In this document: in pieces, positions 4,633-54,517 of the stretch
How the letters are laid out: each line of letters opens with the position of its first letter
How positions within the stretch are numbered: position 1 is the stretch's first letter
Virus record (IMG/VR): IMGVR_UViG_3300006919_000039
Reading direction: 5' to 3' (one strand)
Source: an uncultured virus (IMG/VR IMGVR_UViG_3300006919_000039)
Taxonomy: Duplodnaviria; Heunggongvirae; Uroviricota; Caudoviricetes
Length of the DNA stretch: 64,000 nucleotides
Made by a program: the position numbers and the translations under genes
The notes under the pieces: generated by a model
The model's database searches: none
What the model was told of the DNA's origin: nothing
Seen by the model: the letters and a program-made list of their open reading frames with translations, nothing else

Positions 4633-4797
4633 TCAATACCAAGGATTGTTAGTTACATACTCAGGTAGTTTTCTTTCCTCTGAACGAGGAAAATCAACTC
4701 TGCTGACTTTATAACTCTTAGCTCTAGGGCCAAGGACTTCCTTAGTAAGATCACGTTTGACTGCACGTTTGAATCGTGCTATTTGATACTTAGTCAT
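4633..4797 (-). CDS. 54-aa basic microprotein downstream of the tandem riboswitch (not in ORF track)
   Basis: MTKYQIARFKRAVKRDLTKEVLGPRAKSYKVSRVDFPRSEERKLPEYVTNNPWY*. SD AAGGAG upstream; ends at the terminator. Confidence 0.8.
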   Translation of the reverse strand: MTKYQIARFKRAVKRDLTKEVLGPRAKSYKVSRVDFPRSEERKLPEYVTNNPWY

Positions 4798-4818
4798 GTC
4801 ATCTCCTTTTACAAAGAT

Positions 4819-4879
4819 GCGTTCCTTCGGTACTATTACCTACTTCCGTTCACTGCTACATTTAGAGTGAATGAACGAT
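4819..4879 (-). ncRNA. glnA-class glutamine riboswitch aptamer (proximal copy)
   Basis: AUCGUUCA-UUCAC..GUGAA-CGGAAGUA-GGUA..UACC-GAAGGAACGC: P1 CGUUC/GAACG, hairpins P2 and P3, and the E-loop segments GGAAGUA and GAAG typical of the glnA motif. Confidence 0.88.
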
Positions 4880-4883
4880 TTCG

Positions 4884-4933
4884 GCGTTCCTTCGTCTTAT
4901 GACTACTTCCGTCCTAATGAATAGGATGAACGT
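4884..4933 (-). ncRNA. glnA-class glutamine riboswitch aptamer (distal copy)
   Basis: ACGUUCA-UCCUA..UAGGA-CGGAAGUA-GUC..GAC-GAAGGAACGC: same conserved core as the proximal copy, with different but still paired P2/P3 stems. Confidence 0.88.
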
Positions 4934-4939
4934 ATAAAA

Positions 4940-5896: not shown

Positions 5897-5919
5897 AAGG
5901 GCACAACATAGGAAATTAT

Positions 5920-6531
5920 ATGAAAAAAGATAAAATTATACTTACAGACTGCGATGGCGTAATTTTAGATTGGGAAGAAGGATTCTCAATATGGATGGAA
6001 CACCATGGTCATAGCAAGGTAGAAGGTTACCAATTTATGTATAGTATTGGTGATAGATATGGTATTGACAAAGATCAAGGCAATAAATTAGTTAAACAAT
6101 TTAATGAAAGTGCGGCAATAGGATTCTTACCTCCCCTAAGAGATGCACAATACTTTGTAAAGAAGTTACATGAGCAACATCAATACAAATTTATTTGTAT
6201 TACTAGTTTAAGTTTAGACCCTTATGCAAAATATTTGAGAAAAAGAAATCTCAAAAAACTTATGGGAGATGCATTTTTAGATGTAGTGTGTTTAGACACT
6301 GGCGCAGACAAAGATACTATTTTACAAGAGTATGGTGAAAAATATACTGGTAATTACTGGATAGAAGACAAACCAGAAAATGTTAATTGGGGTATAGACG
6401 CAGGTCTCAATGGCATACTTATAGAGCATGGCCACAATCTAGACTACAAAGGTGATGCAACCATAGTAAAAAATTGGCAAGAGATTTATAGTATTATTAC
6501 TTCACGTAAGAATTATATAAAAAACACTTGA
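5920..6531 (+). CDS. HAD-family 5'(3')-deoxyribonucleotidase-like phosphatase
   Basis: Motif I DCDGVI, motif II ITS, motif IV IEDK. Confidence 0.8.
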   Translation: MKKDKIILTDCDGVILDWEEGFSIWMEHHGHSKVEGYQFMYSIGDRYGIDKDQGNKLVKQFNESAAIGFLPPLRDAQYFVKKLHEQHQYKFICITSLSLDPYAKYLRKRNLKKLMGDAFLDVVCLDTGADKDTILQEYGEKYTGNYWIEDKPENVNWGIDAGLNGILIEHGHNLDYKGDATIVKNWQEIYSIITSRKNYIKNT

Positions 6532-6555
6532 CATATCTGTATTATTTGTTATACT
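6528..6555 (+). promoter_or_regulatory. Sigma70 promoter
   Basis: TTGACA-N16-TATACT with TG extension. Confidence 0.75.
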
Positions 6556-6579
6556 ATTATACATAGTTAGGAGTAAAGC

Positions 6580-7908
6580 ATGACAGATACACTAGAAAAA
6601 ACACCCAAAGCAACAGGAACTGCTAAAGACCGTGCGTCTAAAACATTAGTAGATATACCTGAAACTACACTTTCAGATGAAGAAGTAAGGGATAAACTTA
6701 TTAAAGCCAGAATAGAAATGCTGATGTCAGCACCATTTTTTGGTAACTTAGCAACTAGATTAATTATTAAAGACGCAACTAGTTGGTGTCCAACAGCCGC
6801 AACTGACGGCAAATACTTTTATTATAACAAACATTTTGTAGCCGCATTAAGTGATGCAGAATGTGTATTCCTTATGGGACATGAAGTATTACATTGTGTA
6901 TATGATCATATGGATGCAAATCGTAGAGGAGACAGACACCCTGTACTTTGGAATGTTGCTAATGACTATGTTATTAATGGAGACTTAATTGATGCCAGAG
7001 TAGGCGAAGAAATTAAGTTGGTACAAATATGTCATGATTGGAAATACAGAGGCAAAGTTTCTGAAGAAATATATGACGACTTATATAAACAAGCAAAAGA
7101 AGATGGCCGTATTATGGAAATGGATTCTTTTGACGTACACTTAGACAGAGAAGAAGGTGATGACGAAGGTTCAGGCTCTGCTAGTAAAGGAAACACAGAC
7201 GGTGATGAGGACGGTGACGGTCCTGCAAAATATACTGCTGAAGAAAAAGAGCAAATTTCTCAAGAATTTAAAAATGCTACTATGCAGGCCGCCAAGGCGG
7301 CTGGTGCCGGTAACTTGCCAGGAGGCGTAAAAAGGTTATTAAATGACCTGCTTAATCCTCAACTTGATTGGAGACAATTACTTGCTATGCAAATCCAAAG
7401 TGTAATGAGAAGTGATTACACAATGGCAACTCCTAGCAGAAAAGGTCTTAACGAAGGTTACTACTTGCCAGGACTTGATAGAGAAACAACAATTGATATT
7501 GTTGCCGCTCTTGATATGTCAGGTAGTATTTTTGATGATATGGCAAGAGACTTTTTAAGTGAATTAAAAGGTATAATGGATCAGTACACAGACTTTAAAA
7601 TCCACTTACTATGTTTTGACACAGAAGTTTACAATCCAAAAGTATTCACACAAAATGATATGGGCGAGTTTATGGAATATGAACTCAACGGAGGCGGTGG
7701 TACCGACTTTGATTGTGTGTTTAATTGGATGAAAGAAGAAGGAGTACAACCTAAGAAATTGGTTATGTTTACTGACGGCTACCCTTACGGAAGTTGGGGA
7801 GATGAAGGTTACTGTGACTCCTTGTTTATAGTTCATGGTGGATATGGCGACAGAATTCCAGAAGCACCTTTTGGTATTACTGTACCCTATAAAAGAGATC
7901 AAGAATGA
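6580..7908 (+). CDS. Metallopeptidase-like (HExxH) plus VWA domain protein (DUF2201 type), likely MoxR partner
   Basis: TAATDG, HEVLH, MIDAS motif DMSGS, GGGGTDF, FTDG. Confidence 0.9.
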   Translation: MTDTLEKTPKATGTAKDRASKTLVDIPETTLSDEEVRDKLIKARIEMLMSAPFFGNLATRLIIKDATSWCPTAATDGKYFYYNKHFVAALSDAECVFLMGHEVLHCVYDHMDANRRGDRHPVLWNVANDYVINGDLIDARVGEEIKLVQICHDWKYRGKVSEEIYDDLYKQAKEDGRIMEMDSFDVHLDREEGDDEGSGSASKGNTDGDEDGDGPAKYTAEEKEQISQEFKNATMQAAKAAGAGNLPGGVKRLLNDLLNPQLDWRQLLAMQIQSVMRSDYTMATPSRKGLNEGYYLPGLDRETTIDIVAALDMSGSIFDDMARDFLSELKGIMDQYTDFKIHLLCFDTEVYNPKVFTQNDMGEFMEYELNGGGGTDFDCVFNWMKEEGVQPKKLVMFTDGYPYGSWGDEGYCDSLFIVHGGYGDRIPEAPFGITVPYKRDQE

Positions 7909-10181: not shown

Positions 10182-10216
10182 ATTGACATAGTTAGGTAAG
10201 TAAGGAGAAGAGAAGA

Positions 10217-10876
10217 ATGTTCCCAACTAAAGAAGTATTATCAGTAAGTGCCGCGGCACACAGAATAAACGAAGGTTTTATCAAAAAAGACCAAGTTCGT
10301 TTCGACGAAAAACATAAAAATAAAACTTGTAACAGTGATTTGTTATACAATCATTTCTACAGAGAAAATGAAAAGTTACAGGTACTTGAAAAAGATACTG
10401 ATCTAGCAGAAATTATTATTGATTATCTTAAGGGTCTTAGTTTTAAAGCAATTGAAAGAGAACTTACAGATTTTGAAAAAAATGTACTTAAACTTGTTAG
10501 TGGAGAAAATATTGAAAAAGAAAAAATTGGTATTGCGGCAAGTTTACCTAAAGTTTATCTAAATAAATTGGAACAGGATTCCTGGACTGACAGAGAAAAT
10601 ATTTTGTCTGCTACAAGCAAAGCTCAAGGAACACTTCATGAAAGAGGTACATTTGATGTTGTTATTGAATTTTGTAGATACATTCCAAGAACCATGAGTT
10701 ACTTGATTACTACTAGTATTGATGATAAACATATACTAAAATTCTTTCATGATAAAAATATTAAAGTAGGTAGTAATATCAAAATAGATGGTTATGTAAA
10801 AAGCCAGGGTAGAGGCAGATACCATAATGGACAAGAAACTATCATCAATAGAATTAAGGTTCACGAAGACGTATGA
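10217..10876 (+). CDS. Hypothetical early protein with a probable C-terminal OB fold
   Basis: C-terminus KVGSNIKIDGYVK...YHNGQETIINRIK. Confidence 0.6.
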   Translation: MFPTKEVLSVSAAAHRINEGFIKKDQVRFDEKHKNKTCNSDLLYNHFYRENEKLQVLEKDTDLAEIIIDYLKGLSFKAIERELTDFEKNVLKLVSGENIEKEKIGIAASLPKVYLNKLEQDSWTDRENILSATSKAQGTLHERGTFDVVIEFCRYIPRTMSYLITTSIDDKHILKFFHDKNIKVGSNIKIDGYVKSQGRGRYHNGQETIINRIKVHEDV

Positions 10877-32440: not shown

Positions 32441-32468
32441 TTGACAATATCTCTTTTTGTGCTATAGT
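32441..32468 (+). promoter_or_regulatory. Sigma70 promoter with A-rich UP element
   Basis: TTGACA-N16-TATAGT with TG extension. Confidence 0.75.
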
Positions 32469-32499
32469 ATATACATAATTTAAAGGTAAGGAGTAAATT

Positions 32500-33609
32500 A
32501 TGGAAACACTTAAAGTAAGAGCATCGGAAGTAAAACCTGTAGTCCTAAGGGCTATGAAGGCTAACAGACCGATTTTTGTCTGGGGAGCACCAGGCATAGG
32601 TAAATCAGAACTTGTTGAACAAATTGTTAATAGTGGCGATCTTGGGACTGCTTCAATTATTGACATGCGTTTAGCACTTCTTGAACCAACAGACCTAAGA
32701 GGGTATCCTTTTAGGAATCCTGAAACAAACACTATGGAATGGTCACCGCCAACAGACTTGCCATCAAAAGAATTTGCTGAGCAGTTTGATACAGTGGTAC
32801 TATTTTTAGATGAGTTAAACTCAGCACCTCCTAGTGTACAAGCGGCGGCTTATCAGTTAGTATTGAACAGAAAAGTTGGACAATACGAACTACCTGACAA
32901 TGTAAGAATTGTTGCGGCAGGTAACCGTGAGACTGACAGAGGTGTTACATTTAGAATGCCGGCACCGTTGGCAAACAGATTCCGTCATATCAACATGGAT
33001 GTCAATTTTGAAGATTGGCAACAATGGGCAGTGAATAACAATGTTCATCCTGATGTTGTAGGTTACTTAACTTACAGTAAAGGCGACTTGTTTGACTTTG
33101 ACGCAAAAAGTTCCTCACAGGCATTTGCTACACCAAGAAGTTGGAATTTTGTAAGTGAAATGCTTAATGTTGATGGCTTTAATTCTGCTAGTTCATTTGA
33201 ACAAAAAGCAGAAATATCAGGAGCCATAGGCGAGGGAATGGCTATTAAATTTGTAGAACACAGAAAGGTTGCTAAACATCTTCCTAACCCAAGTCAAGTT
33301 ATAGACGGTTCCGTTAAAAAACTTGATGGTAAAGTTAGTTCAGAGATTAGTGCAAAGTATTCATTAGTTGTAGGCCTTGCTTACGAACTAAATGAGGAAT
33401 ATCAAAAGAAACCAAGTATTACCCCAGAGTTTAAAAAGGCTTTAAACAATGTTGTATCGTTTGCTTTTGATAATTTTGAGCCTGAAATGGTTGTGTTCTT
33501 GTTAAGAACAATTATGAAAGACTATCAGATTAAGTTCAATGTTAGAACTGATTTAGATACTAAACTTAGGGAGACCTTTAGTAAAAGGTATATCAAATAT
33601 ATAGTCTAA
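32500..33609 (+). CDS. MoxR-like AAA+ ATPase
   Basis: Walker A GAPGIGKS, Walker B LFLDE, AAGN, LANRF, TPRSW. Confidence 0.92.
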   Translation: METLKVRASEVKPVVLRAMKANRPIFVWGAPGIGKSELVEQIVNSGDLGTASIIDMRLALLEPTDLRGYPFRNPETNTMEWSPPTDLPSKEFAEQFDTVVLFLDELNSAPPSVQAAAYQLVLNRKVGQYELPDNVRIVAAGNRETDRGVTFRMPAPLANRFRHINMDVNFEDWQQWAVNNNVHPDVVGYLTYSKGDLFDFDAKSSSQAFATPRSWNFVSEMLNVDGFNSASSFEQKAEISGAIGEGMAIKFVEHRKVAKHLPNPSQVIDGSVKKLDGKVSSEISAKYSLVVGLAYELNEEYQKKPSITPEFKKALNNVVSFAFDNFEPEMVVFLLRTIMKDYQIKFNVRTDLDTKLRETFSKRYIKYIV

Positions 33610-33614
33610 TTATT

Positions 33615-33668
33615 AAAATCCTTGTGCGCCTACCTATGTTACTCCCTACCTAAGAGCACCTGGATTTT
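33615..33668 (+). ncRNA. Candidate small RNA: hairpin with a C/U-rich anti-RBS loop
   Basis: AAAAUCC..GUGC-[GCCUACCUAUGUUACUCCCUACCUAAGA]-GCAC..GGAUUUU. The loop is complementary to leaders at 5905, 6570, 10192, 32484 and 33765. Confidence 0.55.
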
Positions 33669-33669
33669 G

Positions 33670-33696
33670 AAGACCCCTTAATGGGGTCTTTTTTTG
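33670..33696 (+). terminator. Intrinsic terminator
   Basis: AAGACCCC-TTAAT-GGGGTCTT followed by a T run. Confidence 0.9.
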
Positions 33697-33719
33697 ACTT
33701 AAAAATCTACATTTATAAC

Positions 33720-33747
33720 TTGACATTATAGTAAAATTTGCTATAAT
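33720..33747 (+). promoter_or_regulatory. Sigma70 promoter
   Basis: TTGACA-N16-TATAAT with TG extension. Confidence 0.8.
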
Positions 33748-33774
33748 ATGTAGTATAAATGTTAGGAGTAACAT

Positions 33775-34080
33775 ATGATTGAGATACTACAGGAAATAAC
33801 TGATTGGGGCAAATACCCAGTTGCAAATGGTGTTTATCATATTAATAGTGCAGGGCAACTTGTTCAACACAATGATAAAGTATTTAAAAATCCAATAAAA
33901 CAATTTAGCAAGACAAGACGCAAGTTTAAAAAGATAGGCGAAAGACCAGAACAATTAGCCTCTGATATTATTCAGGTAAAAGGCAGTAATGGTAAAGTTT
34001 ATATTATAGATGACGGCAAATGTAGTTGTCCAGGTTACACATTTAGGGGGAATTGTAAACATGTTAAAGAAAACACTTAG
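33775..34080 (+). CDS. SWIM zinc-finger protein
   Basis: CSCPGY....CKH. Confidence 0.8.
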   Translation: MIEILQEITDWGKYPVANGVYHINSAGQLVQHNDKVFKNPIKQFSKTRRKFKKIGERPEQLASDIIQVKGSNGKVYIIDDGKCSCPGYTFRGNCKHVKENT

Positions 34081-42537: not shown

Positions 42538-43159
42538 TATAAGTATCCATAAAACTTTTTAACTCAAGAAATATTTTTTTATATAATAATTGATGCGATA
42601 TGTGTTTACTTTCATCAAATCCTTCAGGATATAATTTTAAATATCTCTCTATAAAACTATCATGTGGCATATAATATTTACTTGTATCTATGCTATTCCA
42701 TAAAGGTTCATGGCAGTCTTTAGGTATTGAATTGTACATATTACAATAAATATAATCTATATTTTTACTTTTAAAATACTCTTGCAAACCTATCTGATAT
42801 ATTAATAAATTATACAAACCTACCTTCCAATTAGTCATATGCAAATCAGCAAAATTTAAAAATTTTTGTAAGTCTGGATTATCTGATTGTTTGCCTAGAG
42901 AATATTGATATACTCCTTCGTCAAAATTAAACTCGAATCGTTCGTGAGTTGTCCAACCTATTATAACTAAGTCAACATTGTGTCTTTCACAATATTCTAT
43001 GGTTGATTTAAAAATAGCAAAGTTACTGTTGCCACCTACAGCAATATTATTTGTATCATAACTTTTAAAATAGTCATTAAATGAGTGTGGCTTATATTCT
43101 AAACTAGGTCCTTGTATTCCTGAGGTATGACTACACCCGTTAATTAAAAGTTTTTTCAT
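42530..43159 (-). CDS. SGNH-like hydrolase-fold protein
   Basis: NGCSHT, NIAVGGNSN, IIGWT..ER, C-terminal His. Confidence 0.6.
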   Translation of the reverse strand: MKKLLINGCSHTSGIQGPSLEYKPHSFNDYFKSYDTNNIAVGGNSNFAIFKSTIEYCERHNVDLVIIGWTTHERFEFNFDEGVYQYSLGKQSDNPDLQKFLNFADLHMTNWKVGLYNLLIYQIGLQEYFKSKNIDYIYCNMYNSIPKDCHEPLWNSIDTSKYYMPHDSFIERYLKLYPEGFDESKHISHQLLYKKIFLELKSFMDTYNG

Positions 43160-44475
43160 CTATTGCTTTTGTACATCAAATTAAATAACTCTGGAAATGC
43201 TTCTTCCATAGATTCGTCTCTATTATTATCTAATAGCTCAGTATATTTTTGGAATGTTGCTAGTTCCTGTCTCCAATTTGCATGTCTTCTTTCTTTAAGA
43301 GCATTAATCGTTGCTGTAACTGTTTGTATATTAATATCTCTTTTGGCTAATATTTCACTTCTCTGTAACCACTGCTCTAATCTACCAATTGCAACTTCTC
43401 TTACTTGATCAGGACAGTTTCTAAAGTCTAAACTTGTAGGATAATCGCAAATTAAGAATGTAACAAATATTTCTCTACCGTATTCCTTTTCTAATTCTTC
43501 GCAATAGTCTAATAATTTTGTTATTGTTAAAACATTATAAATTTGTATTACAGGAGAAAAGTTTACGGTTCCAACTACATCGCTTTCACAATATTTTCTT
43601 ATGTTTTTATCTACTTGTTTCCAATGACTTGCACCACGGATATATTCGTTTTCACTTCCATAAGCATCAACACTAACACACATTAATACACTTTTAAATT
43701 GCTCTACAAGGTTTATAAAACGTTTTTGTACATTAGTCATGTTACTGTTAAAAACTAAATCTATATCTTTTGCTATACCCATTTCAACACATTTTTCCAT
43801 TATCCAATATACACGTTCTATAATGGTAGGCTCACCGCCAGTAAAATATAATCTGTTTACACCAGGTAACCATTCTTCTACTTGTCTTAAAAACTCAGGA
43901 TCGTCTTCCCAAGGTGTTACGTGGTCAGCAAAATGCCCCCATGTAAAATTATCCTTTATAAATTGTGCTGATTCAGGACTTTTACTTTCTATCTTTTTAT
44001 ATTCTTTTTGTATTTGGCTTGAATTTTGTGGCTGACACATTCTGCATTTCAGGTTACACATGTTGCCAAGTCTAAAGTCTAAGTACATAGGAGGTTCTTC
44101 CACGTGGTAATCGCTTTCAATACTTTTTTCTATTATGTCATGTATTTTTTCTCCATAAGGACTGTACTCAAACCAATCTCTTATGTAATTCAATCTGTAA
44201 CTTGGAAATCCCATATCTTCTTGATCGTAACACCTAGTACATTGAGGTACTGACTCTCCTTCAATCATTTGGCGTCTTACTTCTTTCATATGATTATTGT
44301 TCCATACACTTTCAATTTTATCGCCGTTGTTTAAATTAAACATTGTACCGTCATCATTTTGGAATTGTTTTCTAGCCACACAACAAAAATTAGCCGCTCC
44401 AGTAGGTTGAGTCATTATAGAAATCCATGGATATGGACAAAATGTTTTGTTGTTCATGTAATCTCTATTGCTCAT
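43156..44475 (-). CDS. Radical SAM protein with N-terminal Twitch/SPASM-like domain (#1)
   Basis: CPYPW..CC..CTRC; CNLKCRMC; TGGEP. Confidence 0.9.
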   Translation of the reverse strand: MSNRDYMNNKTFCPYPWISIMTQPTGAANFCCVARKQFQNDDGTMFNLNNGDKIESVWNNNHMKEVRRQMIEGESVPQCTRCYDQEDMGFPSYRLNYIRDWFEYSPYGEKIHDIIEKSIESDYHVEEPPMYLDFRLGNMCNLKCRMCQPQNSSQIQKEYKKIESKSPESAQFIKDNFTWGHFADHVTPWEDDPEFLRQVEEWLPGVNRLYFTGGEPTIIERVYWIMEKCVEMGIAKDIDLVFNSNMTNVQKRFINLVEQFKSVLMCVSVDAYGSENEYIRGASHWKQVDKNIRKYCESDVVGTVNFSPVIQIYNVLTITKLLDYCEELEKEYGREIFVTFLICDYPTSLDFRNCPDQVREVAIGRLEQWLQRSEILAKRDINIQTVTATINALKERRHANWRQELATFQKYTELLDNNRDESMEEAFPELFNLMYKSNR

Positions 44476-44493
44476 ATTTTTTCTCTTTTAAAC

Positions 44494-44511
44494 GGGCTGG
44501 CGAACCAGCCC
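44494..44511 (-). terminator. GC-rich UUCG hairpin (terminator or processing/stability element)
   Basis: GGGCTGG-TTCG-CCAGCCC followed by GTTT. Confidence 0.55.
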
Positions 44512-44597
44512 TATGCTCCTTTATTATCTAGGTTAAAGTCTTCTACACTTCCTTTTACTAGAAATTAATGTGTTACATAAGGTTTACTCCTCTATTG

Positions 44598-45815
44598 CTA
44601 AAACTCCTCTGGGGCATTCCCATAGTTTTTTAATAGTTCATAAAACTCTGGAAATGTGTCTTTAAAACTTTCGCCTCTGAATTGGTCGCTAAATTTCGTT
44701 GATGAATAAAACTTTTCTAATTCTGCTTGGTCGTAATCTACGTCTGTACAATACTTTACTGAACTTACAATATCTGGATGATTGTTACCTCTATACTTAT
44801 CTGCAATTTTTTCTTTTACTGTTGAAGGGAGGACCTTACAACTATAATGTTGTGGAGTATAAACATGATTAAAATATACTGGTAAATCTTGTTTAAAACT
44901 ATCTCGCCATTGCAGTATTTCTTCCATATAATAAATGTTAAAAATACCCACAGTATAACAAATATCTAAATGTATAGAAGGAATATTTAAATCAATAATA
45001 CGTTGTAAATTTTCTTGCACCTGGTCCCATTTAGCAGGGTGTCTGATATATTCAAATTGTTTACCAACACCGTCAAAACTAAAACTAAGAAGTACTCTGT
45101 CAAAATGTTTCCAAATGTCTACACCTTTGTCAGGATATACACTTCCATTTGTATTATACAGTAAAGTCATTTCTTTACTTCTGCCAGACTCTACTAATTT
45201 TTCTAATATATCATAATGCCTTTCTATAAGCAGTGGTTCTCCACCATAAAATTCTAATACTTTTAAATCTGTACTTATGTTTTCAAAATCTTCCCAAAAA
45301 CTTTCATTTGTTTCAGGCCATCTACCTACTTGTCTCATATGGTCCCAAAACTGATTACCATATCCTCTTTGCTCTTGTAAAAACTTGTCGTATTTTTTCT
45401 CTTCTGGTACCCACAAACTACTAGCATAACTACTACAAATTCTACATTTGTTATTACAAATATTACCTAATTTTAAATCCATAGCAATAGGTTTTTCGTT
45501 AATTTTACCTTGCTCTGCTTCTGCTTTTGCATTAGGAAAATCACGTAATGCTCTCTGACGTTTACTATCTATACCGGCGTCTTCGGCAGTCCAGCAACTA
45601 TAACAGGCCTCTGGTTTTTTACCGTCCAAAAAGTCCTGCCTAAGTTTTGCTAACCATTCACTTTTCCAACCATCACTTAATGTGTCTTCTGTTAAGCAAA
45701 ATTTATTTTCAGAATCTTTTTGCATTACTTCGTCCATTTGACAGCAGATAGCAATACCGCCATCAGTTCTGGCTTCTAAATTTACAAACGGCATTGGGCA
45801 AAAATGTTTACTCAT
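44598..45815 (-). CDS. Radical SAM/Twitch protein (#2)
   Basis: Start MSKHFC (ATGA overlap); CNNKCRIC; YGGEP. Confidence 0.9.
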   Translation of the reverse strand: MSKHFCPMPFVNLEARTDGGIAICCQMDEVMQKDSENKFCLTEDTLSDGWKSEWLAKLRQDFLDGKKPEACYSCWTAEDAGIDSKRQRALRDFPNAKAEAEQGKINEKPIAMDLKLGNICNNKCRICSSYASSLWVPEEKKYDKFLQEQRGYGNQFWDHMRQVGRWPETNESFWEDFENISTDLKVLEFYGGEPLLIERHYDILEKLVESGRSKEMTLLYNTNGSVYPDKGVDIWKHFDRVLLSFSFDGVGKQFEYIRHPAKWDQVQENLQRIIDLNIPSIHLDICYTVGIFNIYYMEEILQWRDSFKQDLPVYFNHVYTPQHYSCKVLPSTVKEKIADKYRGNNHPDIVSSVKYCTDVDYDQAELEKFYSSTKFSDQFRGESFKDTFPEFYELLKNYGNAPEEF

Positions 45816-45922
45816 GCTCTGTGCCACTCACCGTTTTTAAATACCACAAGTTCTCCATATTGGTCTAAACTGTATTCTCCTTCTTCAGGATTCTGTGGTT
45901 CTTTTACTTTTATTTTTGTCAT
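45812..45922 (-). CDS. 36-aa microprotein coupled on both sides to radical SAM genes (not in ORF track)
   Basis: MTKIKVKEPQNPEEGEYSLDQYGELVVFKNGEWHRA*; ATGA overlaps at both ends. Confidence 0.7.
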   Translation of the reverse strand: MTKIKVKEPQNPEEGEYSLDQYGELVVFKNGEWHRA

Positions 45923-47154
45923 AACTCTGCTAACTCTGGAAAAACATTTTCAAATGTTTCGTTCCTTAATTTATCAAATTCTACATTAAAATCTTTAAAC
46001 TCTTGCCATAGTTCTGTATGATCATCATCTAAAAACTTAATTGCACTTTTATATCCTTCTGTTGCTCTACCTATATGGTCCTGTGGTTCTAACCATGCTA
46101 AATGTCTTTGCCATTTATTTTTAATTTTATCCTTAAACTCTGTAGGCAACACACTCATTCTAAAACGTGGGTTATTTAGTAGCACATTCATATACCAATC
46201 GCCTGGTTGTATGTAGCCTGCCTCTACCCAGTTCCTATGAAAGTCAGTTATATGCCAGGCATTATAGGCACTTACCGTTGCACTTACATAAAAATCTATT
46301 TCAGGTGCTTTTAATCTTAATCTCTCTATGTTATTTACTACATCTGCCCATTTTGTACCTTTACGTTGATACTCTCCGCGTATTCCTTCTGCATCTAAAC
46401 TTGCACCTATACTAATATTGTCAAAGTTTTTCCATAATTCTAAAACATCATACTTTTTATAATTTAATTTTGTAAAGTTTGTATTATAAAATATTCGTAT
46501 ATCCGTTTTCCCCATCTCTACAAGTTTATTCATTATGGCCCAATGCTCGTCCATTATAATAGGCTCACCACCAGCCCAATATATTTGTTCTATATGTTCT
46601 AACATAGGTTCAAACTCGTCCATAAATCCATCAACATCTTTACGAATCTGTATTATTTGTTCTGTAGGGCTAATGTTAAAACTACTCTTTACAGCATCAG
46701 CAAACCAATTACTACTCAGTTCTGGACCACAGTATCTGCAACGTAAATTACAAACATTACTAAAACGGAAATCTAAATATACAATATGTAAATCATCTAA
46801 ACTACCGTCCGTATTTGTTTTTTCAACTTTATCCCAATGAGGTTCTAACCAGTCTCGGTTACTTCTTACTCTCAAACTGTCGTGTCCTTTATCTTCTTTT
46901 TCATAGCAACGTACACATTGCGAACACTTTTTACCGTTTAACATGTTTAAGCGAACTTGTTTCATTTTTTCGCTATTCCAAACTTCTTGTAAACTATTTT
47001 CTCGCAAATCACCTATATGATCTTCCCAAGGAGAATCACAACATAACATTGTTTTACCATTAGGCCAAGGGTGCATATGAATCCAGGGCAGGATACACAT
47101 TACATCATTTTTACTAATGTCTTCAAAATTTAAACTATTTGACTGTTTATCCAT
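45919..47154 (-). CDS. Radical SAM/Twitch protein (#3)
   Basis: CILPW..CC..CVRC; CNLRCRYC; AGGEP. Confidence 0.9.
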   Translation of the reverse strand: MDKQSNSLNFEDISKNDVMCILPWIHMHPWPNGKTMLCCDSPWEDHIGDLRENSLQEVWNSEKMKQVRLNMLNGKKCSQCVRCYEKEDKGHDSLRVRSNRDWLEPHWDKVEKTNTDGSLDDLHIVYLDFRFSNVCNLRCRYCGPELSSNWFADAVKSSFNISPTEQIIQIRKDVDGFMDEFEPMLEHIEQIYWAGGEPIIMDEHWAIMNKLVEMGKTDIRIFYNTNFTKLNYKKYDVLELWKNFDNISIGASLDAEGIRGEYQRKGTKWADVVNNIERLRLKAPEIDFYVSATVSAYNAWHITDFHRNWVEAGYIQPGDWYMNVLLNNPRFRMSVLPTEFKDKIKNKWQRHLAWLEPQDHIGRATEGYKSAIKFLDDDHTELWQEFKDFNVEFDKLRNETFENVFPELAEL

Positions 47155-48263
47155 TCTATCTCTAAATTTATATCACCAAGTTTTTTACATAATTCAATAT
47201 TGTGATCGAATCTTGATTTTAAATTTTCTAAATGTTTGTTCCAATTTTCTACAGGAAGAGAAGTATAATCTTTAAGATTGTCAGCAATAATATCACATCT
47301 TTTAAAAATATTATCTTCTTTATCATAATTGTGATCTAACAGATCATCAAATACGTCAAATCCTAGTTTTCGTAAATGTTCAACATAACCTGCAGAAGCA
47401 ATAAACAATGGTAATTGTCTACAATAAAAACTTTTTGTGGTTTTTTCTGTTAAAAAATATCTGTCAGTGTTGTTTCTGCACCATCCATAACTCTTATTTT
47501 GATAAACAGATTCAGCACATGTTTCATTATACCCTACACCACTTTCCATAACTATATTAAAAACGGCATTATCAAAATTGTGTAAATTATCCCATTGCTG
47601 ATGGTCATCATCTCCCAAATCTATTGGAAATTTTTCTATAAAGTCTGGATTTATTAAAAATTCTTTTATTAAATCTCTGTTATTATGGGAAAATGGTCCG
47701 TTGCTGTCAAAAAAATCTTTTTGCCCCCAACCACAACTGACCATACCATGCTGTACTAAATTTTTATCTAATAATTTTCCAGTAAAATAAATTCTTTCTG
47801 CTCTGGGCATTCTTGCTAATGACACAAAATGTACACTTTTAGGCTGTAATCCTTTTTCTATTATGGATTTATAATTGTATTCCAGTCTGTTAAAAGAAAA
47901 ATAACTGGTTTTATGGCATATAGGTATATCCACTAAATGTCTTAACAAATGGCCTTCTGTTAGGCCTCCATCTGTCCATATTATTTTTTTATACCCTTTA
48001 AATTTTACTATATCAAATATGATATTCCAGTATGTACTGTGCATTGCTTCTTCAGAATAGGTTAAATATATACTATGAGTAACAGGCAACTTCTCTAATG
48101 CTTCTTTAGTATATGTTGGAAGCTCAGACTCCAGAGTATTACTATAATTTATAATACAAACATCTCCAGATATATTTTCAAATATAGGATTAAAATTTTC
48201 CTCTTCCTTGTGAGCAACTAATATATTATTTTTTGTTTTACTTATATACATGTTGTATTCCAT
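47130..48263 (-). CDS. Glycosyltransferase-like protein (TEK..P.F..GF.VF..YD family)
   Basis: R.PR.ER; NIVMES; LTEKTTK; LGFDVFDD...NYD. Confidence 0.5.
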   Translation of the reverse strand: MEYNMYISKTKNNILVAHKEEENFNPIFENISGDVCIINYSNTLESELPTYTKEALEKLPVTHSIYLTYSEEAMHSTYWNIIFDIVKFKGYKKIIWTDGGLTEGHLLRHLVDIPICHKTSYFSFNRLEYNYKSIIEKGLQPKSVHFVSLARMPRAERIYFTGKLLDKNLVQHGMVSCGWGQKDFFDSNGPFSHNNRDLIKEFLINPDFIEKFPIDLGDDDHQQWDNLHNFDNAVFNIVMESGVGYNETCAESVYQNKSYGWCRNNTDRYFLTEKTTKSFYCRQLPLFIASAGYVEHLRKLGFDVFDDLLDHNYDKEDNIFKRCDIIADNLKDYTSLPVENWNKHLENLKSRFDHNIELCKKLGDINLEIEWINSQIV

Positions 48264-49479
48264 ATTTCTCTAATAAGTCTATAAGCTCTGGGAATATTTC
48301 CCTCCAACCTTTTTCGTGTAGGCGTATTTTATCTAACTCGTCATTGTACCGACAAAAGTGTTCCCATTTAACTTCATCCCAATCATCGTTATCATACATA
48401 CTCAACAATGTTCCGAGTTCATATCTGTTACCCATCGTTTTTCTAAACTTGGTATGGGCCGCAAGTCTCACGACGGGCGGTAATATTCCGGGCGATAGGT
48501 AATCAGGGTCATAAACAAAGTTCATATCCACAGGCACTGGTGCCCAGTCTAAAAACTTATCTAAATAAATGTAACTGTAAGCACTAACAGTTTGAGTAAT
48601 TCTAACTGTGAGCTCAGGTACATCTTTTATCAGACTTAAATTTTTCTCTACATCTGACCATTCTGTAGGAAATCTGATATATTGATTTCTGTGTTCCAGG
48701 TCGTCTATACTAGGACAAACTCTGGCTTCTTTAAATTCTTTCCAAAGTGGTATTGCTTCTTCAGGCAAATTTGTCATGTTAATATTATACCACAGTATAA
48801 TATTTTTACTGCGGCCACTATCAACTAATTTGCGTAAGTAATTCCAATGTGCTTTAATAAGTGTTGGCTCACCACCATTGATATATAAAACTTCCATGTT
48901 AGGCGCACACTCAAATAAATCCTCATAAAAATTTTCATCTTCTGGCCACTGAAAGTCGTGTTTGTGGTCTAACCAACTGTATCCGTCATTTACGAAGTCC
49001 AAGGACTCAACAATTTCTTTATAATCTTTAACCCACCTTGAACTACTTGCTGGATTACAAGTGCGACAGCGGACATTACATACATTACCAAGACGCAACT
49101 CGACAAAACGAAGATCCAAAGGTATGCTACCATCCTCACTTGTAATTCTGGATGAGTAATCGGCGTCAAAGTCCTTATATATCTTGGACTCGTAGATACG
49201 TTTGCTCTCAATTCCTTTTCTTTCTTCATCGTAGCATCTTTTACATGCTTTAGGCTCCACATCATTTAACATCTCCCTTCTAATCTGCTTAAAATAATCA
49301 CTATTCATATGTGTATCAATATTGTGATCATTTAAATTGAAAAATACATCTCCCTTTTCAGTAAAGTCTCTTGCTCTGTTTTTACCTGCTGTCATGTCAG
49401 AGATACAACAAGGAGTTACACCACCATGTGGGTGTGTACCTAAATGCATCCAAGGTAAAGGACAAAATGTTTTACTCAT
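48238..49479 (-). CDS. Radical SAM/Twitch protein (#4)
   Basis: CPLPW..CC..CKRC; CNVRCRTC; NGGEP. Confidence 0.9.
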   Translation of the reverse strand: MSKTFCPLPWMHLGTHPHGGVTPCCISDMTAGKNRARDFTEKGDVFFNLNDHNIDTHMNSDYFKQIRREMLNDVEPKACKRCYDEERKGIESKRIYESKIYKDFDADYSSRITSEDGSIPLDLRFVELRLGNVCNVRCRTCNPASSSRWVKDYKEIVESLDFVNDGYSWLDHKHDFQWPEDENFYEDLFECAPNMEVLYINGGEPTLIKAHWNYLRKLVDSGRSKNIILWYNINMTNLPEEAIPLWKEFKEARVCPSIDDLEHRNQYIRFPTEWSDVEKNLSLIKDVPELTVRITQTVSAYSYIYLDKFLDWAPVPVDMNFVYDPDYLSPGILPPVVRLAAHTKFRKTMGNRYELGTLLSMYDNDDWDEVKWEHFCRYNDELDKIRLHEKGWREIFPELIDLLEKYGIQHVYK

Positions 49480-50807
49480 TATATGTATGTTCCTTTTTCT
49501 ATTGCTCCGTACATTGGGTCTTTTTCTGCCCTATTGTACAATAAATCATAATCAAAATCTTCTTTTACTATTTCCCATAACTCTGGAAATATTTGTCTAA
49601 AATCTTCTTTTCTGTATTGGTCTCCAGATACAACCTGTTTTCTAAACATATTCCATCTTACTGCTATTTCACTTTCTACAGTATTGTTTTGGTCCTCTCC
49701 GTATGCTGTAACAGTATCTTTTTGTCTTGCTGTAGCATGACGTAATATGCCTTTCATTTCTGAAATATATTTTTGCTCAAATAATCCTTCTCTTATTGCT
49801 TTTTGTAATCCTTCAACACTTCGTTCTTTCATCTCATCTGGTAAAACATTAGGATTAAACCAACTAGGTAAGTTTGCTATATTATGAAAAATATCAAATC
49901 TAGGCCAACGTTCCCTAAATTCTTGATGAAATTCTACCAAATACATCAAATTTAAAATAGTAACAGTATTGGTTATACCTGCATGTATTTTTCCGTCCTC
50001 TACCCACTTATGTATTTTGTCTAAGTTAGCAGAAACTTCTTCCCAATTACCTGGAAATCTTAGATATTCAAATCTTTTACCTATTCCATCTATGCTTACA
50101 TTAAAAGCAACATTGTCAAAATTTTCTATAACTCTTTCTAAAAACTCTCCACCTGCCTGTGTTCCATTAGTACTAAAATTTATGCCGATGTTTTTAGCAT
50201 ATCCTTGATCTATTAATTTTTCGGCAAAAGTTTTAAACTCTTTCATGTACAACGGTTCGCCACCCATTATTTCTAAATTTTTTATGTGTGGAATCCAGTC
50301 ATCCATTTCGGTCCAAAACTTTGATCGTTCCTGATCGTCCATTGGTACTGGTACTACTTCTTTAAAATAAGGCAAACCTCTGGCATTTGCTTCTTTTACC
50401 CACTTGCTACTGTAATTTGGATTACAACTTCTGCATTTTAAATTACATGTCGTGCTTAAAATAATTTGCATATCCTGAGGCATGTCAGGTTCTACTGAAT
50501 AATCTATAGGATCTAATCTCCATTCGGCATATTCATTGTAAATTTGCCTTTTGGATTTTTTACCGTTTGCTTCTTCTCTCCAACAAGGCTCACAGTTTTC
50601 AGGAAGTTTACCTTCCCTGATTTCTTGTCTTATTTTTTTATAATAATTGCTATGAAATATATCGCGTACTGAAGTTGAACCTAGTGTAAAGTCTTCTCCA
50701 TTATCATCTTTTACTCGCTCTTTTGCTATACAGCAAGTTCTGACTTGGCCTAAAGGCTCATTACTAAGATGAGCCCATAGTAAACTACAATACCTAGGTT
50801 CTGACAT
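49479..50807 (-). CDS. Radical SAM/Twitch protein (#5)
   Basis: CSLLW..CC..CEPC; CNLKCRSC; MGGEP. Confidence 0.9.
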   Translation of the reverse strand: MSEPRYCSLLWAHLSNEPLGQVRTCCIAKERVKDDNGEDFTLGSTSVRDIFHSNYYKKIRQEIREGKLPENCEPCWREEANGKKSKRQIYNEYAEWRLDPIDYSVEPDMPQDMQIILSTTCNLKCRSCNPNYSSKWVKEANARGLPYFKEVVPVPMDDQERSKFWTEMDDWIPHIKNLEIMGGEPLYMKEFKTFAEKLIDQGYAKNIGINFSTNGTQAGGEFLERVIENFDNVAFNVSIDGIGKRFEYLRFPGNWEEVSANLDKIHKWVEDGKIHAGITNTVTILNLMYLVEFHQEFRERWPRFDIFHNIANLPSWFNPNVLPDEMKERSVEGLQKAIREGLFEQKYISEMKGILRHATARQKDTVTAYGEDQNNTVESEIAVRWNMFRKQVVSGDQYRKEDFRQIFPELWEIVKEDFDYDLLYNRAEKDPMYGAIEKGTYI

Positions 50808-50808
50808 A

Positions 50809-52125
50809 TTACTTCCGTCTAGTGTTACCGTAATGAATTACTTCAACACCCATAATATCAGGAGTTTTTCTCCAAGGATCTACTACAACACTACCTGGTG
50901 CAAATGTTAATTCAGTACCATTACCTGTCGATACCAGAGCAGTATCACAATCTGTAACGTGTTGCTCATTGTACCAACCTGGTACTGTATCTAATTGATC
51001 GCCATATGTAATACCTGGATTATGTGCTAGTAGATATACTGCTGGATTATTTAAAACTTCCTCTGGAGGAATATCACCTGTTTTTTCATCATAGTAGTAA
51101 AGATCATGACCATGTTTTTGTACATAGTGTCCAACTAACATGCTACTAGAGCCTGCTTCATATTCCACTAAAGGTTTATATGCTTTACCTACAATAATAA
51201 TAGGCATGCTTGGTACTAAGCCAAATGCTGGGTGTTGATCACCTGCTAGTGTCATTAGACGTTTTGCCATGTTCTCTGCTTGTACTTCTCTTGATAACAT
51301 TACTGCATCAAACAAGTCATATCCTAGCTCAAGTTCTTCTGCCATCCAACGTAAAGCGATATTATCTCGGGGGTGACAAGCACCACCATCGCCCATACCT
51401 GGCTTCATATAACCTGGTCCCATAATACGTCTGTCACTAGTAGCAAGTGCATCACAAACAACTTCTGCGTTTATGTTGCCCAAGTTTTCTGCAACATCTT
51501 GTATCATGTTTACTAGACTTACTTTTGCTGATATAAATGTGTTGTAAAATACTTTAATACATTCTGTTTCGTCCCAAGTACCTATAATGTATCTGGGTTC
51601 GTTTTGCATTATTGTTTTATAGAAGTCTACAAGTTCCAATGCGTCACCAGTTTCACTTCCATCTTCTGTTCCAATCATTACCATTTCTGGATTAACCATA
51701 TCCCACTTTACTGTACCCATAGCAATAAGGTAAGGATTGTAAACAAACCTTGCGTTTGGTATTAAGTCAATAAACTCTCTTCTGGTAGTTCCAGGTAAGA
51801 CTGTTGATATAAGGACTACTAATTGGTCTTTTGTAGCAACCGCATTTACTTCACTAAGTACTTGCTTGACCAATGTATAGTCAAAGTCTTTGTTTGGTAA
51901 ATGGCTGGTTGGTGCTTTTCCATCATATTGTGGATCATGTGGTGTAGGTACTGCTATAAAAACAATATTTCTACCACGTACAGCATCTGCTATACTGTCT
52001 ACCATTGTAAAGTTTTCAGGCTCTACATGGTTTACATCATATCCAACAACATCATGTACTTCAGCGACCATCTCGGCACAGGCTTGTCCTAACTTTCCTA
52101 CACCGATAAATCCGACTGAGGCCAT
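50809..52125 (-). CDS. UDP-glucose/GDP-mannose dehydrogenase family protein
   Basis: GVGKLG, FIAVPTP, STVLPGT, KVFYN, catalytic GGACHPRD. Confidence 0.9.
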   Translation of the reverse strand: MASVGFIGVGKLGQACAEMVAEVHDVVGYDVNHVEPENFTMVDSIADAVRGRNIVFIAVPTPHDPQYDGKAPTSHLPNKDFDYTLVKQVLSEVNAVATKDQLVVLISTVLPGTTRREFIDLIPNARFVYNPYLIAMGTVKWDMVNPEMVMIGTEDGSETGDALELVDFYKTIMQNEPRYIIGTWDETECIKVFYNTFISAKVSLVNMIQDVAENLGNINAEVVCDALATSDRRIMGPGYMKPGMGDGGACHPRDNIALRWMAEELELGYDLFDAVMLSREVQAENMAKRLMTLAGDQHPAFGLVPSMPIIIVGKAYKPLVEYEAGSSSMLVGHYVQKHGHDLYYYDEKTGDIPPEEVLNNPAVYLLAHNPGITYGDQLDTVPGWYNEQHVTDCDTALVSTGNGTELTFAPGSVVVDPWRKTPDIMGVEVIHYGNTRRK

Positions 52126-52171
52126 CTCTATCTCCTGTTGTGTTATTGTGTGTAGTTTTTAAACTACTGAC

Positions 52172-52179
52172 TATTTATC
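52172..52179 (-). promoter_or_regulatory. Late-type promoter GATAAATA
   Basis: TATTTATC on +, about 47 nt upstream of the dehydrogenase. Confidence 0.55.
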
Positions 52180-52216
52180 GGGTCGGAATTAGCAGTATTA
52201 CTGCTTATGGCAGGGA

Positions 52217-53620
52217 TTATCGTTGATTATGTTTGCGGTCTACTCTCATCCACCAATCATATAGTTCTGTATCTTGCTGGTAAATTTGTTCTATACGCAA
52301 TTTTTCTTCTGGTCTAATTTGTGCTATTTGATTTTGCCAGTTCCTGCCTTTAAAAAAGGCTTCTTCGGCCTCGTCTGGCCATTGTTCCTGAAATGTTGGT
52401 GAGGTTTTCATACCTTCCAGTTCATTTATTAATGTTTGTTGCTTATGTGTAGATCTAGGCCTTATATAGTCTAGCACATCATCTATTATTCTGTCAAGTA
52501 TTTCTCTTGGCCAAGCCATCATACTCATAACAATATCAGGATGGAATGCAAACATGCGTTTTGTTTCTATTTTTACGTCAAGTTCTAATGCATAATCAAA
52601 AAAGTTTTTAAGATCAAACATACCAGGGCCTGTTAATGTTAAGTCCATCAACATTTTATCATTACCACCTGGTAGTGCAACACCCTCTCTAAAGTTTTTA
52701 TCCCATTGTTCCCAATTTAAACCTGTGCGAATAAACTCGCCTATATCGCCTGTTCCATCTATACTGGCACACATAGTCCAATCTTTTGCCTGTGGTAACC
52801 AATCGTACAAATAATAATCCTTAAATCTTACACGACTTAAATTACTGTTATATCTTAAATGTACTTTTTCAAGATTATTATCTTGTGCTAATCTATCCAT
52901 TGCTCGCCAATGTATATCATACATTAATGGTTCGCCACCTACCCAGTATAATTCTTCAACTGTACCACTGCAAATATATTCCCAAAATTCTTCTTCTACT
53001 ACCTCTTTTTGAAACTTCTCGATAATCTTTTTGTTCTCAGGTACCATAAAAGGTTGATTCTCTGGAGTCCAAAGATCGTGTTTACGTTTTTCTGCCTCCC
53101 ATGTTGAGCTGAGCGGCTCGCCACACATACGGCATTTAAAATTGCATAAATTACTAACCCTATAATCAAAAGAGATAGGTTCCATTGTAGTATATCCATT
53201 TTCATCAGTCTCCTCAAAACATTGATCTATTTTATTCTCGAACAAGTAACCTGTAAACCATTGTCTATATGTACTTTGGCTTAATACACTATCATTACAA
53301 ACATTACATTGTGGTATTTCCTCACCTGCCATAAGTTTCTTTCTTATGTCCATCATGTAAGGTGAGTTCCAATGTTCTTTTAAACTAATAGGTTTGTAAT
53401 CTGCTATTGTGCCTACTTCCTTATATTTTCCTGTGCTTTTATCATTACTGGCATCAATGTATTGCCTTTGCATCATGTGTTCTTCCCTACTAGCACAGCA
53501 CATACGCCTCTCTGACTGCGGAGAAATATAGGTATGGGTCCAGGGTGCTGTACAAAACACCTTGTTTTCAGACTCTGGGTGCATAGCACCGTGTTCCCAT
53601 TTAGGCTTTATCTTACTCAT
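52217..53620 (-). CDS. Radical SAM/Twitch protein (#6)
   Basis: Start MSKIKP (ATGA overlap); CTAPW..CC..CNVC; CNFKCRMC; VGGEP. Confidence 0.9.
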   Translation of the reverse strand: MSKIKPKWEHGAMHPESENKVFCTAPWTHTYISPQSERRMCCASREEHMMQRQYIDASNDKSTGKYKEVGTIADYKPISLKEHWNSPYMMDIRKKLMAGEEIPQCNVCNDSVLSQSTYRQWFTGYLFENKIDQCFEETDENGYTTMEPISFDYRVSNLCNFKCRMCGEPLSSTWEAEKRKHDLWTPENQPFMVPENKKIIEKFQKEVVEEEFWEYICSGTVEELYWVGGEPLMYDIHWRAMDRLAQDNNLEKVHLRYNSNLSRVRFKDYYLYDWLPQAKDWTMCASIDGTGDIGEFIRTGLNWEQWDKNFREGVALPGGNDKMLMDLTLTGPGMFDLKNFFDYALELDVKIETKRMFAFHPDIVMSMMAWPREILDRIIDDVLDYIRPRSTHKQQTLINELEGMKTSPTFQEQWPDEAEEAFFKGRNWQNQIAQIRPEEKLRIEQIYQQDTELYDWWMRVDRKHNQR

Positions 53621-53766
53621 AGTTCTGGGTCGTATAAACAATCTTTATCTAGTTCTTCGTTCTCTATATCTTCTTCAGTAACGTCACAATAATTACACGG
53701 TTCACCTCTTAATGTTGATGTTATACCTAAGCCGTGTTTACAAATATGTGTCCAAAATTTATGCAT
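53617..53766 (-). CDS. 49-aa Cys/His microprotein (not in ORF track)
   Basis: MHKFWTHICKHGLGITSTLRGEPCNYCDVTEEDIENEELDKDCLYDPEL*; overlaps both neighbours. Confidence 0.65.
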   Translation of the reverse strand: MHKFWTHICKHGLGITSTLRGEPCNYCDVTEEDIENEELDKDCLYDPEL

Positions 53767-54517
53767 TTGCAACCTCTAGTTGGTTCATATTTACAAAAAA
53801 ATCATAAAACTTTTGATGCGTTAAAACTGCTGTATTAAATTCTTTCTCATCTCCTAAATATTTTTCAATATAATCTACATTTTTAAGAGCTACAGCACAA
53901 TCAGGATAAACATCTTCACATTTGCCTTCATATCCTATCCTGGCATGTGGGAATTTATTTCTTAAATCTTCTATTCTGGATAATTTTAATTCTTCTATTT
54001 GTGTAGGAAATTTAAAAGCAGTATGATATATGTATAATCTTTCTCCTCTCTGAGTCCTGTTATATTTGTCATAAAGTTTTTGTATGTTTTCGTCAGTTCC
54101 TGAATATCTAACAACATGAAAGTTATTAAAACAAAATTCTACTAGTGCCCAATCATCTCTAGAATCAAAATGTATTTTTACGTCTTGTGCTTTTGTTCTT
54201 TCTTTTACCCATTCACCTGCTTCAGTATCAGTTACACACCATATTAATGGAATACCAATCTGTTCTGTTAGATCCAAAAGTTTTTTACAATTTAAATCGT
54301 CCAGTTCACTTTTTTGTGCGGCTTCTATATAAGGTATAAACCCCCATTTACTTTGTATGCCCACATACTTTTTATTTTCTGGGATAGAAAGTTTGGGTGT
54401 TGTTTTAGTCATTACTACAGCATCAGCATTACATTGTGCCGCGGCTACTACTCTGGACTTTATAACTTCCCAATCATTTTCATGACCTATACCAATGTTA
54501 GCATATAAATCAATCAT
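53759..54517 (-). CDS. NeuB/PseI (nonulosonate synthase)-like TIM barrel, degenerate
   Basis: ANIGIGH...NADAV...YHT...FPT....L..I..L...IGY...IEK. Confidence 0.65.
   Translation of the reverse strand: MIDLYANIGIGHENDWEVIKSRVVAAAQCNADAVVMTKTTPKLSIPENKKYVGIQSKWGFIPYIEAAQKSELDDLNCKKLLDLTEQIGIPLIWCVTDTEAGEWVKERTKAQDVKIHFDSRDDWALVEFCFNNFHVVRYSGTDENIQKLYDKYNRTQRGERLYIYHTAFKFPTQIEELKLSRIEDLRNKFPHARIGYEGKCEDVYPDCAVALKNVDYIEKYLGDEKEFNTAVLTHQKFYDFFVNMNQLEVANA

Follow-up and report, generated by a model that had tools for sequence, protein, structure and literature searches.

The antisense RNAs c4 of phage P1 and CI of phage P4 come from the same transcription unit as their targets, and their loops pair with ribosome-binding or leader sequences of those targets. 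Both RNAs arise by processing of 5′ leaders and serve in the control of immunity. C-rich loops carrying an anti-Shine-Dalgarno (anti-SD) sequence are found in sRNAs of the alpha-proteobacterial mmgR/suhB family (RF00519). Very few bacterial mRNAs are known in which the 5′-end pairs with the 3′-end, as outlined for icaR (PMC3868564) and hbs (PMC5737220). In Staphylococcus aureus, the 3′-UTR of the icaR mRNA has a C-rich anti-SD motif that pairs with the SD region of the same mRNA, which blocks initiation and creates a substrate for RNase III (outlined in Ruiz de los Mozos et al. 2013, PMC3868564). Enterobacterial mRNAs can also cross-regulate each other by means of trans-acting sRNAs derived from their 3′-UTRs, NarS being one example (outlined in PMC7038943).

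A hairpin located behind a moxR-like gene in the 64,000-nt stretch of viral DNA analysed here (the window) resembles each of these systems in part. As in icaR, an anti-SD motif in the 3′-UTR matches the SD of the same mRNA, here with predicted pairing. Unlike icaR as outlined in that paper, the element belongs to a phage and bears no sequence relation to icaR, and its motif is carried by a dedicated covarying hairpin at the terminator and is 24 nt long and invariant, that of icaR being 7 nt. In addition, the loop is complementary to partner-gene leaders, and repression and cleavage would apply here only by analogy. With the NarS-type sRNAs, as far as outlined in that source, the element shares a conserved seed at the mRNA 3′-end followed by a Rho-independent terminator with a U-tail, but its seed is presented in a large hairpin loop, its best target is the parent mRNA, and neither release by RNase E nor a role for Hfq is supported here.

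A C/U-rich loop that includes an anti-SD word and is followed by a terminator is common to the element and to mmgR/suhB, and, like c4 and CI, the element is a phage RNA from the transcription unit of its predicted target with a loop complementary to the leader. However, no gathering-level family was found at the hairpin site in Rfam 15, where the best sub-threshold matches scored 15.7-22.5 bits against thresholds of 41-55. Among these sub-threshold matches, RF00519 scored best of the sRNA families that span both loop and terminator on the + strand, and its score of 15.7 bits against a gathering threshold of 41 (E 1.2) indicates that the hairpin is not a member. The P1 c4/P4 CI family gave no Rfam match at E ≤ 10. 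A literature search at the level of titles and abstracts returned the bacterial 5′/3′ cases (icaR, hbs and a review) and surveys of phage sRNAs, but no phage 3′-UTR element that mirrors its own leader. Judged by computation, such an element appears to be new for phages, the MoxR/VWA gene pair with which it occurs being already known.

The moxR transcript and its 3′-UTR hairpin

The window has a GC content of 33.8% and represents part of the genome of an uncultured marine jumbo phage. Its DNA polymerase and ATPase are closest to those of the jumbo-phage group that includes PA5oct, Atu_ph07, Phosso and 121Q (42-48% aa identity). The nearest homologues of the ATPase in isolated phages are from PA5oct (48% aa identity) and Phosso (38%), and homologues in jumbo phages carry the annotation 'ATPase'. 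No close relative among isolated phages was found by DNA search. The contigs related to the window are 33-250 kb in length, with an estimated completeness of 9-66%.

The ATPase gene (32500..33609, + strand), referred to here as moxR, predicts a 369 aa MoxR-like AAA+ protein with weak matches to Pfam AAA_3/AAA_5. A pattern scan places a sigma70-type promoter, with 11 of 12 consensus positions and a TG extension, at 32441..32468 (+). The leader is ∼25 nt long, and leader, SD and start codon together occupy 32475..32503 (+); the predicted pairing with the 3′ loop involves 32484-32503. An intrinsic terminator, made up of a GC-rich hairpin and a T-run, lies at 33671..33696 (+) according to the fold, and the pattern scan places it at 33669-33691 plus the T-run. 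The near-consensus promoter, the short leader, the terminator ending at 33696 and the absence of an internal promoter indicate that moxR is a single-gene transcript of ∼1.2 kb.

Group 2.2 jumbo phages are known to encode a MoxR-vWA pair that includes an N-terminal metallopeptidase, and a role in virion assembly has been proposed for this pair (outlined in Iyer et al. 2021, PMC7824862). The window fits that outline of a MoxR AAA+/VWA pair, as it encodes the ATPase and a VWA-like protein with an N-terminal metallopeptidase domain (6580..7908, +; Pfam matches to DUF2201_N and DUF2201). The promoter and leader of this DUF2201/VWA gene (6528..6579, +) form a candidate target of the loop. In all 10 relatives tested, the DUF2201/VWA gene is the next large gene past the hairpin; in the window it is 26 kb off, and the hairpin has remained with the ATPase despite the distance from this partner. 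The gene that follows the hairpin in the window, a candidate second target, predicts a small SWIM zinc-finger protein of 101 aa (33775..34080, +). Its promoter and leader are at 33720..33774 (+), the promoter (33720-33747) matching the consensus at 12 of 12 positions. The SWIM SD and start codon fall in the loop of a weak 8-bp hairpin (33749-33791; −9.5 kcal/mol, z −1.06, not significant).

The earlier note had described a hairpin with a 28-nt C/U-rich loop and a repeated unit between the moxR stop codon and the terminator, and sequence and fold confirm it. The hairpin (33613..33670, +) has a stem formed by 33613-33627 and 33656-33670, which folds as 9 and 4 pairs flanking a 2 × 2 internal loop. 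The open loop occupies 33628..33655 (+), and an 8-nt unit is present in it twice, at 33629-33636 and 33645-33652. Within the loop the core 33629-33652 is invariant, and the predicted pairing with the leader involves 33634-33651. The minimum free energy is −27.2 kcal/mol compared with −13.6 ± 2.6 for 200 shuffled sequences (z −5.3), none of which was as good. A pattern scan of the + strand over 33042-33720 found no sigma70-type promoter directly upstream of the hairpin. The criteria of a scan for further hairpins with large loops rich in pyrimidines proved too permissive for the result to be informative.

In the window, an AU-rich spacer separates the ATPase stop codon from the hairpin. Many relatives (L004-L008, L019-L021, L055, L068, L069, L071 and L076) have an SD-like purine-rich word at or after the stop codon and before the hairpin. 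This word could pair with the loop and so act as a local competitor; L004, for which pairing between leader and loop is not predicted, is among those that have one.

Conservation and covariation in related phages

Relatives were gathered by searching viral contigs with the ATPase protein, which gave 42 loci at 52-100% identity. The hairpin and terminator are directly behind the stop codon in every one of the 40 loci that include the 3′ flank, and in these 40 relatives the element never occurs apart from the moxR 3′-end, irrespective of the downstream sequence. When the hairpins were folded with the loop held open, all 36 distinct sequences formed an 8-14 bp stem enclosing a loop of 22-31 nt. 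A covariance model built from nine sequences and searched over 38 sources detected a single copy in the window and likewise in each of 29 further sources, with one weak extra hit (E 4.1), and the 250-kb relative also has one copy. The model found no match in six divergent loci, the loops of which differ, nor in PA5oct and Phosso. In the latter two, the gene for the ATPase homologue is followed by a terminator alone, with no hairpin.

The hairpin is a real RNA structure under selection. Covariation across related phages, a point raised in the earlier note, is seen at all 10 stem pairs, each of which has both-sided compensatory changes in an alignment that was fitted to the model and includes the weak extra hit. 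In the same model-fitted alignment, 89.9% of cells are paired compared with 34-45% when the partner is slid by 1-3 columns, and the covariation score of 0.693 was reached by none of 500 shuffles (0.253 ± 0.025).

The stem is free to vary and the loop is not. An exact copy of the 24-nt core was found once each in 33 viral contigs, bearing out the conservation of the loop that the earlier note had looked to. Seven of these contigs had not already been seen, and in all seven the exact core is directly behind the C-terminus or stop codon of the ATPase. The core is 100% identical across 22 lineages with distinct ATPase genes, whereas the ATPase gene in those lineages has 75% DNA identity, falling to 49% at third codon positions, and the longest invariant run in 15 genes of the same length is 5 nt. 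Throughout an entire clade of uncultured marine jumbo phages, the element is conserved more strictly than the adjoining protein. The moxR leaders also drift (72.5% identity) while the loop is frozen. In each of six clades, a short pyrimidine unit occurs two or three times in the loop together with an anti-SD-like word, and the remainder of the loop varies.

A further conserved stretch of ∼115 nt is located just after the moxR terminator in L014 (about 3697-3810), where it is followed by a tRNA gene (3814-3887), and also in L015, L021, L055, L068, L069 and L076. It matched no Rfam family.

Complementarity between the loop and gene leaders

An unrestricted RNAduplex scan of the window returned no leader among the 30 best sites, G-rich coding stretches scoring better. 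Because such sites dominated that scan, complementarity was scored by local alignment of the reverse complement of each clade's loop with positions −40 to +3 of every predicted gene start, and loops shuffled with the anti-SD core kept served as the control. Scores were obtained for the window, five whole divergent contigs (G002-G006) and a 250-kb group-A contig (G007).

The complements to the loop listed in the earlier note are all present, at 32484-32496 in the moxR leader (12 of 13), 33765-33775 in the SWIM leader (an exact 11-nt complement, 11 of 11) and 5905-5912 (8 of 8), and also at 6570-6576 and 10192-10198. Its proposal that the loop is antisense to ribosome-binding leaders beyond a generic anti-SD is also supported. 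The leaders of 16 group-A moxR genes have a mean score of 18.75 compared with 11.2 ± 1.45 for core-keeping shuffles, none of which reached the native value in 1000 attempts. The 92 other starts in the same loci have a mean of 11.9, with 12 scoring at least 16. The moxR start ranks 1 of 82 in the window, 3 of 59 in G002, about 8 of 140 in G003, 4 of 99 in G004, 1 of 83 in G005, 4 of 188 in G006 and tied first of 267 in G007.

In the window alone, complementarity to gene starts is modestly above chance (p 0.03-0.05), and the relatives make the case much stronger. Seven of the 82 starts in the window score at least 16 compared with 2.4 ± 2.2 for core-keeping shuffles (p 0.047), and the mean of the top five is 18.2 compared with 15.4 ± 1.3. 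Against core-keeping shuffles, the top-five means of six genomes gave p 0.027 (the window), 0.057, 0.093, 0/300, 0.030 and 0.007, and the top-ten mean of G007 gave p 0.03.

Leaders of the partner genes also score highly. Five DUF2201 leaders have a mean of 16.2, which was reached by 1 of 1000 shuffles. The DUF2201 start ranks tied third in the window (score 17, 82 starts), first in G002, third in G003, tied fifth in G004 and tied third in G005; in G006 it is outside the top ten. Fourth in G007 is a 446-aa gene with a DUF2201-like leader. The G007 homologue of the SWIM gene (65% identical) has a leader that differs from its counterpart in the window and is nearly equal to the G007 moxR leader, and ties for first. 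A weaker match, also scoring 17, is found in the leader of an early gene predicting 219 aa (10182..10219, +).

Different leaders match different registers of the loop, and in several clades two separate leader boxes are collinear with it. Counted without bias, ten of the top 30 6-mers enriched in 52 sigma70 leaders fall in the reverse complement of the loops. Shuffled loops account for 2.7 ± 2.0 of them, with 5 of 1000 doing as well, and the sense loops contain only one. Exchanging loops and moxR leaders between the six clades lowered the score from 18.3 to 16.6, with 49 of 720 permutations equal or better, and in view of this weak result clade-specific co-variation is not claimed. Leaders folded alone showed no significant structure. 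In a subset of sigma70 transcripts (12-13 of the 52 pooled leaders), a conserved box lies a few bases past the −10 and apart from the SD. It was seen in the window at 6553-6579 and 10182-10216 and in leaders of G003, G004 and G006, and the loops of G003 and G004 are exactly complementary to it at their 3′-ends.

Folds of full-length moxR mRNAs show a thermodynamic preference for pairing between leader and loop. In the minimum free energy structure of the window mRNA predicted by RNAfold, 32484-32503, which includes the SD and AUG, pairs with 33634-33651 in 17 bp, most with a probability of 0.85-1.0. The arrangement is that of icaR, the anti-SD being in the 3′-UTR of the transcript whose SD it matches. 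For five divergent genomes with loop and leader sequences of their own, the expected number of leader-loop pairs is 11.2-14.7, and the loop accounts for 70-89% of all pairing by the leader though it makes up only ∼2% of the RNA. Core-keeping shuffles of the loop gave fewer leader-loop pairs in all 18 folds (0-8.3). As RNAfold is unable to keep the stem and pair the loop together, the stem arms were held out of competition; without this, L004 and L007 gave ∼0 leader-loop pairs. Among 11 group-A mRNAs folded with the stem arms so excluded, nine gave 11-16 leader-loop pairs, and only 1.6 and 2.9 were expected for L004 and L032, respectively. These values are from a program that ignores ribosomes, kinetics and pseudoknots, and long-range pairs in folds of 1.2 kb are often wrong.

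Possible modes of action

The explanation put forward here, with moderate confidence and an evenly balanced chance of being right, is that the hairpin masks translation of its own message in an icaR-like manner, probably with an extension to partner mRNAs. The stem would keep the 28-nt loop open, and once the 3′-end of the moxR message had been made, the loop would pair with the SD region and start codon of that message. Ribosomes would then be excluded, limiting each transcript to a burst of ATPase synthesis. The loop would probably also pair in trans with the DUF2201/VWA and SWIM leaders, tying their output to that of moxR. The full-length folds, the confinement of the element to the moxR 3′-end and the absence of a preceding promoter favour an action first on its own message. 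Feedback on moxR itself, which the earlier note had offered as one option, is in keeping with this, the moxR leader being the best-supported target both in the ranking of starts and in the folds of full-length mRNAs.

The asymmetry between a frozen loop and drifting leaders would not be needed by a purely cis-acting pair and counts against an action in cis only. A frozen loop that each leader meets in a different register is the pattern expected of either a seed with multiple partners or a protein site. A less probable reading, proposed only tentatively, is that the loop is a hub seed and not just a self-mask, such that the moxR message or a fragment of it pairs in different registers with several leaders (moxR, DUF2201/VWA, SWIM and a few more) and sets the stoichiometry or timing of the chaperone module, for instance by keeping messages made early masked until late infection. 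If true, no conserved riboregulatory network would have been described in jumbo phages before this one.

The earlier note went further and proposed that a stable trans-acting sRNA of ∼85 nt is released, the loop of which silences the whole class of sigma70 early mRNAs, and possibly mRNAs of the host, in an early-to-late switch. This appears unlikely. An open conserved seed followed by a terminator with a U-tail is the architecture of many 3′-UTR-derived sRNAs, the use of different parts of the loop by different leaders would explain why 24 of 24 nt are frozen, and the 6-mers enriched in leaders match the complement of the loops. The seed is invariant, the DUF2201 and SWIM leaders match it in addition to that of moxR, and the genome-wide excess in G007 is modest, only 7 of 267 starts scoring at least 18 compared with an expected 2.2 ± 2.3. 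Only 4 of 17 early starts in G007 score at least 16. Early starts do outscore others in the window (14.9 compared with 10.3, p 0.001) and in G004, but when sigma70-promoter starts are set against other GGAG-bearing starts, the class enrichment stands only in these two of the seven genomes (p 0.02 and 0.008, respectively) and is absent from G002 (p 0.07), G003 (0.52), G005 (0.63), G006 (0.99) and G007 (0.23). Class-wide silencing of the sigma70 early genes is therefore not supported. Many sigma70 transcripts are nearly leaderless, the hairpin has no promoter in front of it, and the element stays at the moxR 3′-end in all 40 relatives.

The frozen loop could instead be a platform for a protein or the ribosome (S1, Hfq or a phage RNA-binding protein reading the repeated pyrimidine unit, for example), with complementarity to leaders a by-product of SD-like and anti-SD-like words. 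The retention in six clades of two or three pyrimidine units and an anti-SD-like word in otherwise different loops would fit such a site, as would a loop far more conserved than any single leader, the low cost of swaps between clades and an energy ranking that does not single out leaders. It is nevertheless judged unlikely, since core-keeping shuffles never reached the native complementarity to the moxR leader (0 of 1000) or the native fold (lower in 18 of 18), two separate leader boxes are collinear with the loop in several clades, and no candidate protein was identified. The same leader-loop pairing could also have the opposite sign, closure of the 5′- and 3′-ends protecting the message from nucleases or storing an early message for later. 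This would predict the same pairing as self-masking. In B. subtilis hbs, as outlined in PMC5737220, an interaction of the 5′- and 3′-UTRs controls ribonuclease action, and virion assembly, the task proposed for MoxR-vWA in the outline of Iyer et al. (2021, PMC7824862), is a late one, yet the promoter here is of the early type. Protection or storage is nonetheless quite improbable, as the paired stretch covers both the SD and the start codon and should block initiation without an unmasking factor, and none is known. A hairpin that merely assists the terminator by stabilising the 3′-end, with no sequence-specific role, would account for its position next to the terminator in every relative, and the homologues in PA5oct and Phosso do with a terminator alone. 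A stabiliser would need the stem and not an invariant 24-nt loop, but it is the stem that varies and the loop that does not, which makes this very improbable.

Under the preferred explanation of self-masking, one fixed loop facing many drifting leaders would provide a natural system for the study of 3′-UTR control of translation, and the element would flag the MoxR, VWA and SWIM genes as a dosage-sensitive module.

Two other regions of the window were noted. Two tandem glutamine riboswitch aptamers (RF01739) are located on the minus strand at 4816-4934, with scores of 60.3 and 57.8 bits (threshold 35), just upstream of an ORF predicting 54 aa on the same strand (4633-4797). The segment at 43156-56174, also on the minus strand, has a run of at least seven paralogous radical-SAM/SPASM genes, accompanied by carbamoyltransferase and UDP-glucose dehydrogenase-like genes.
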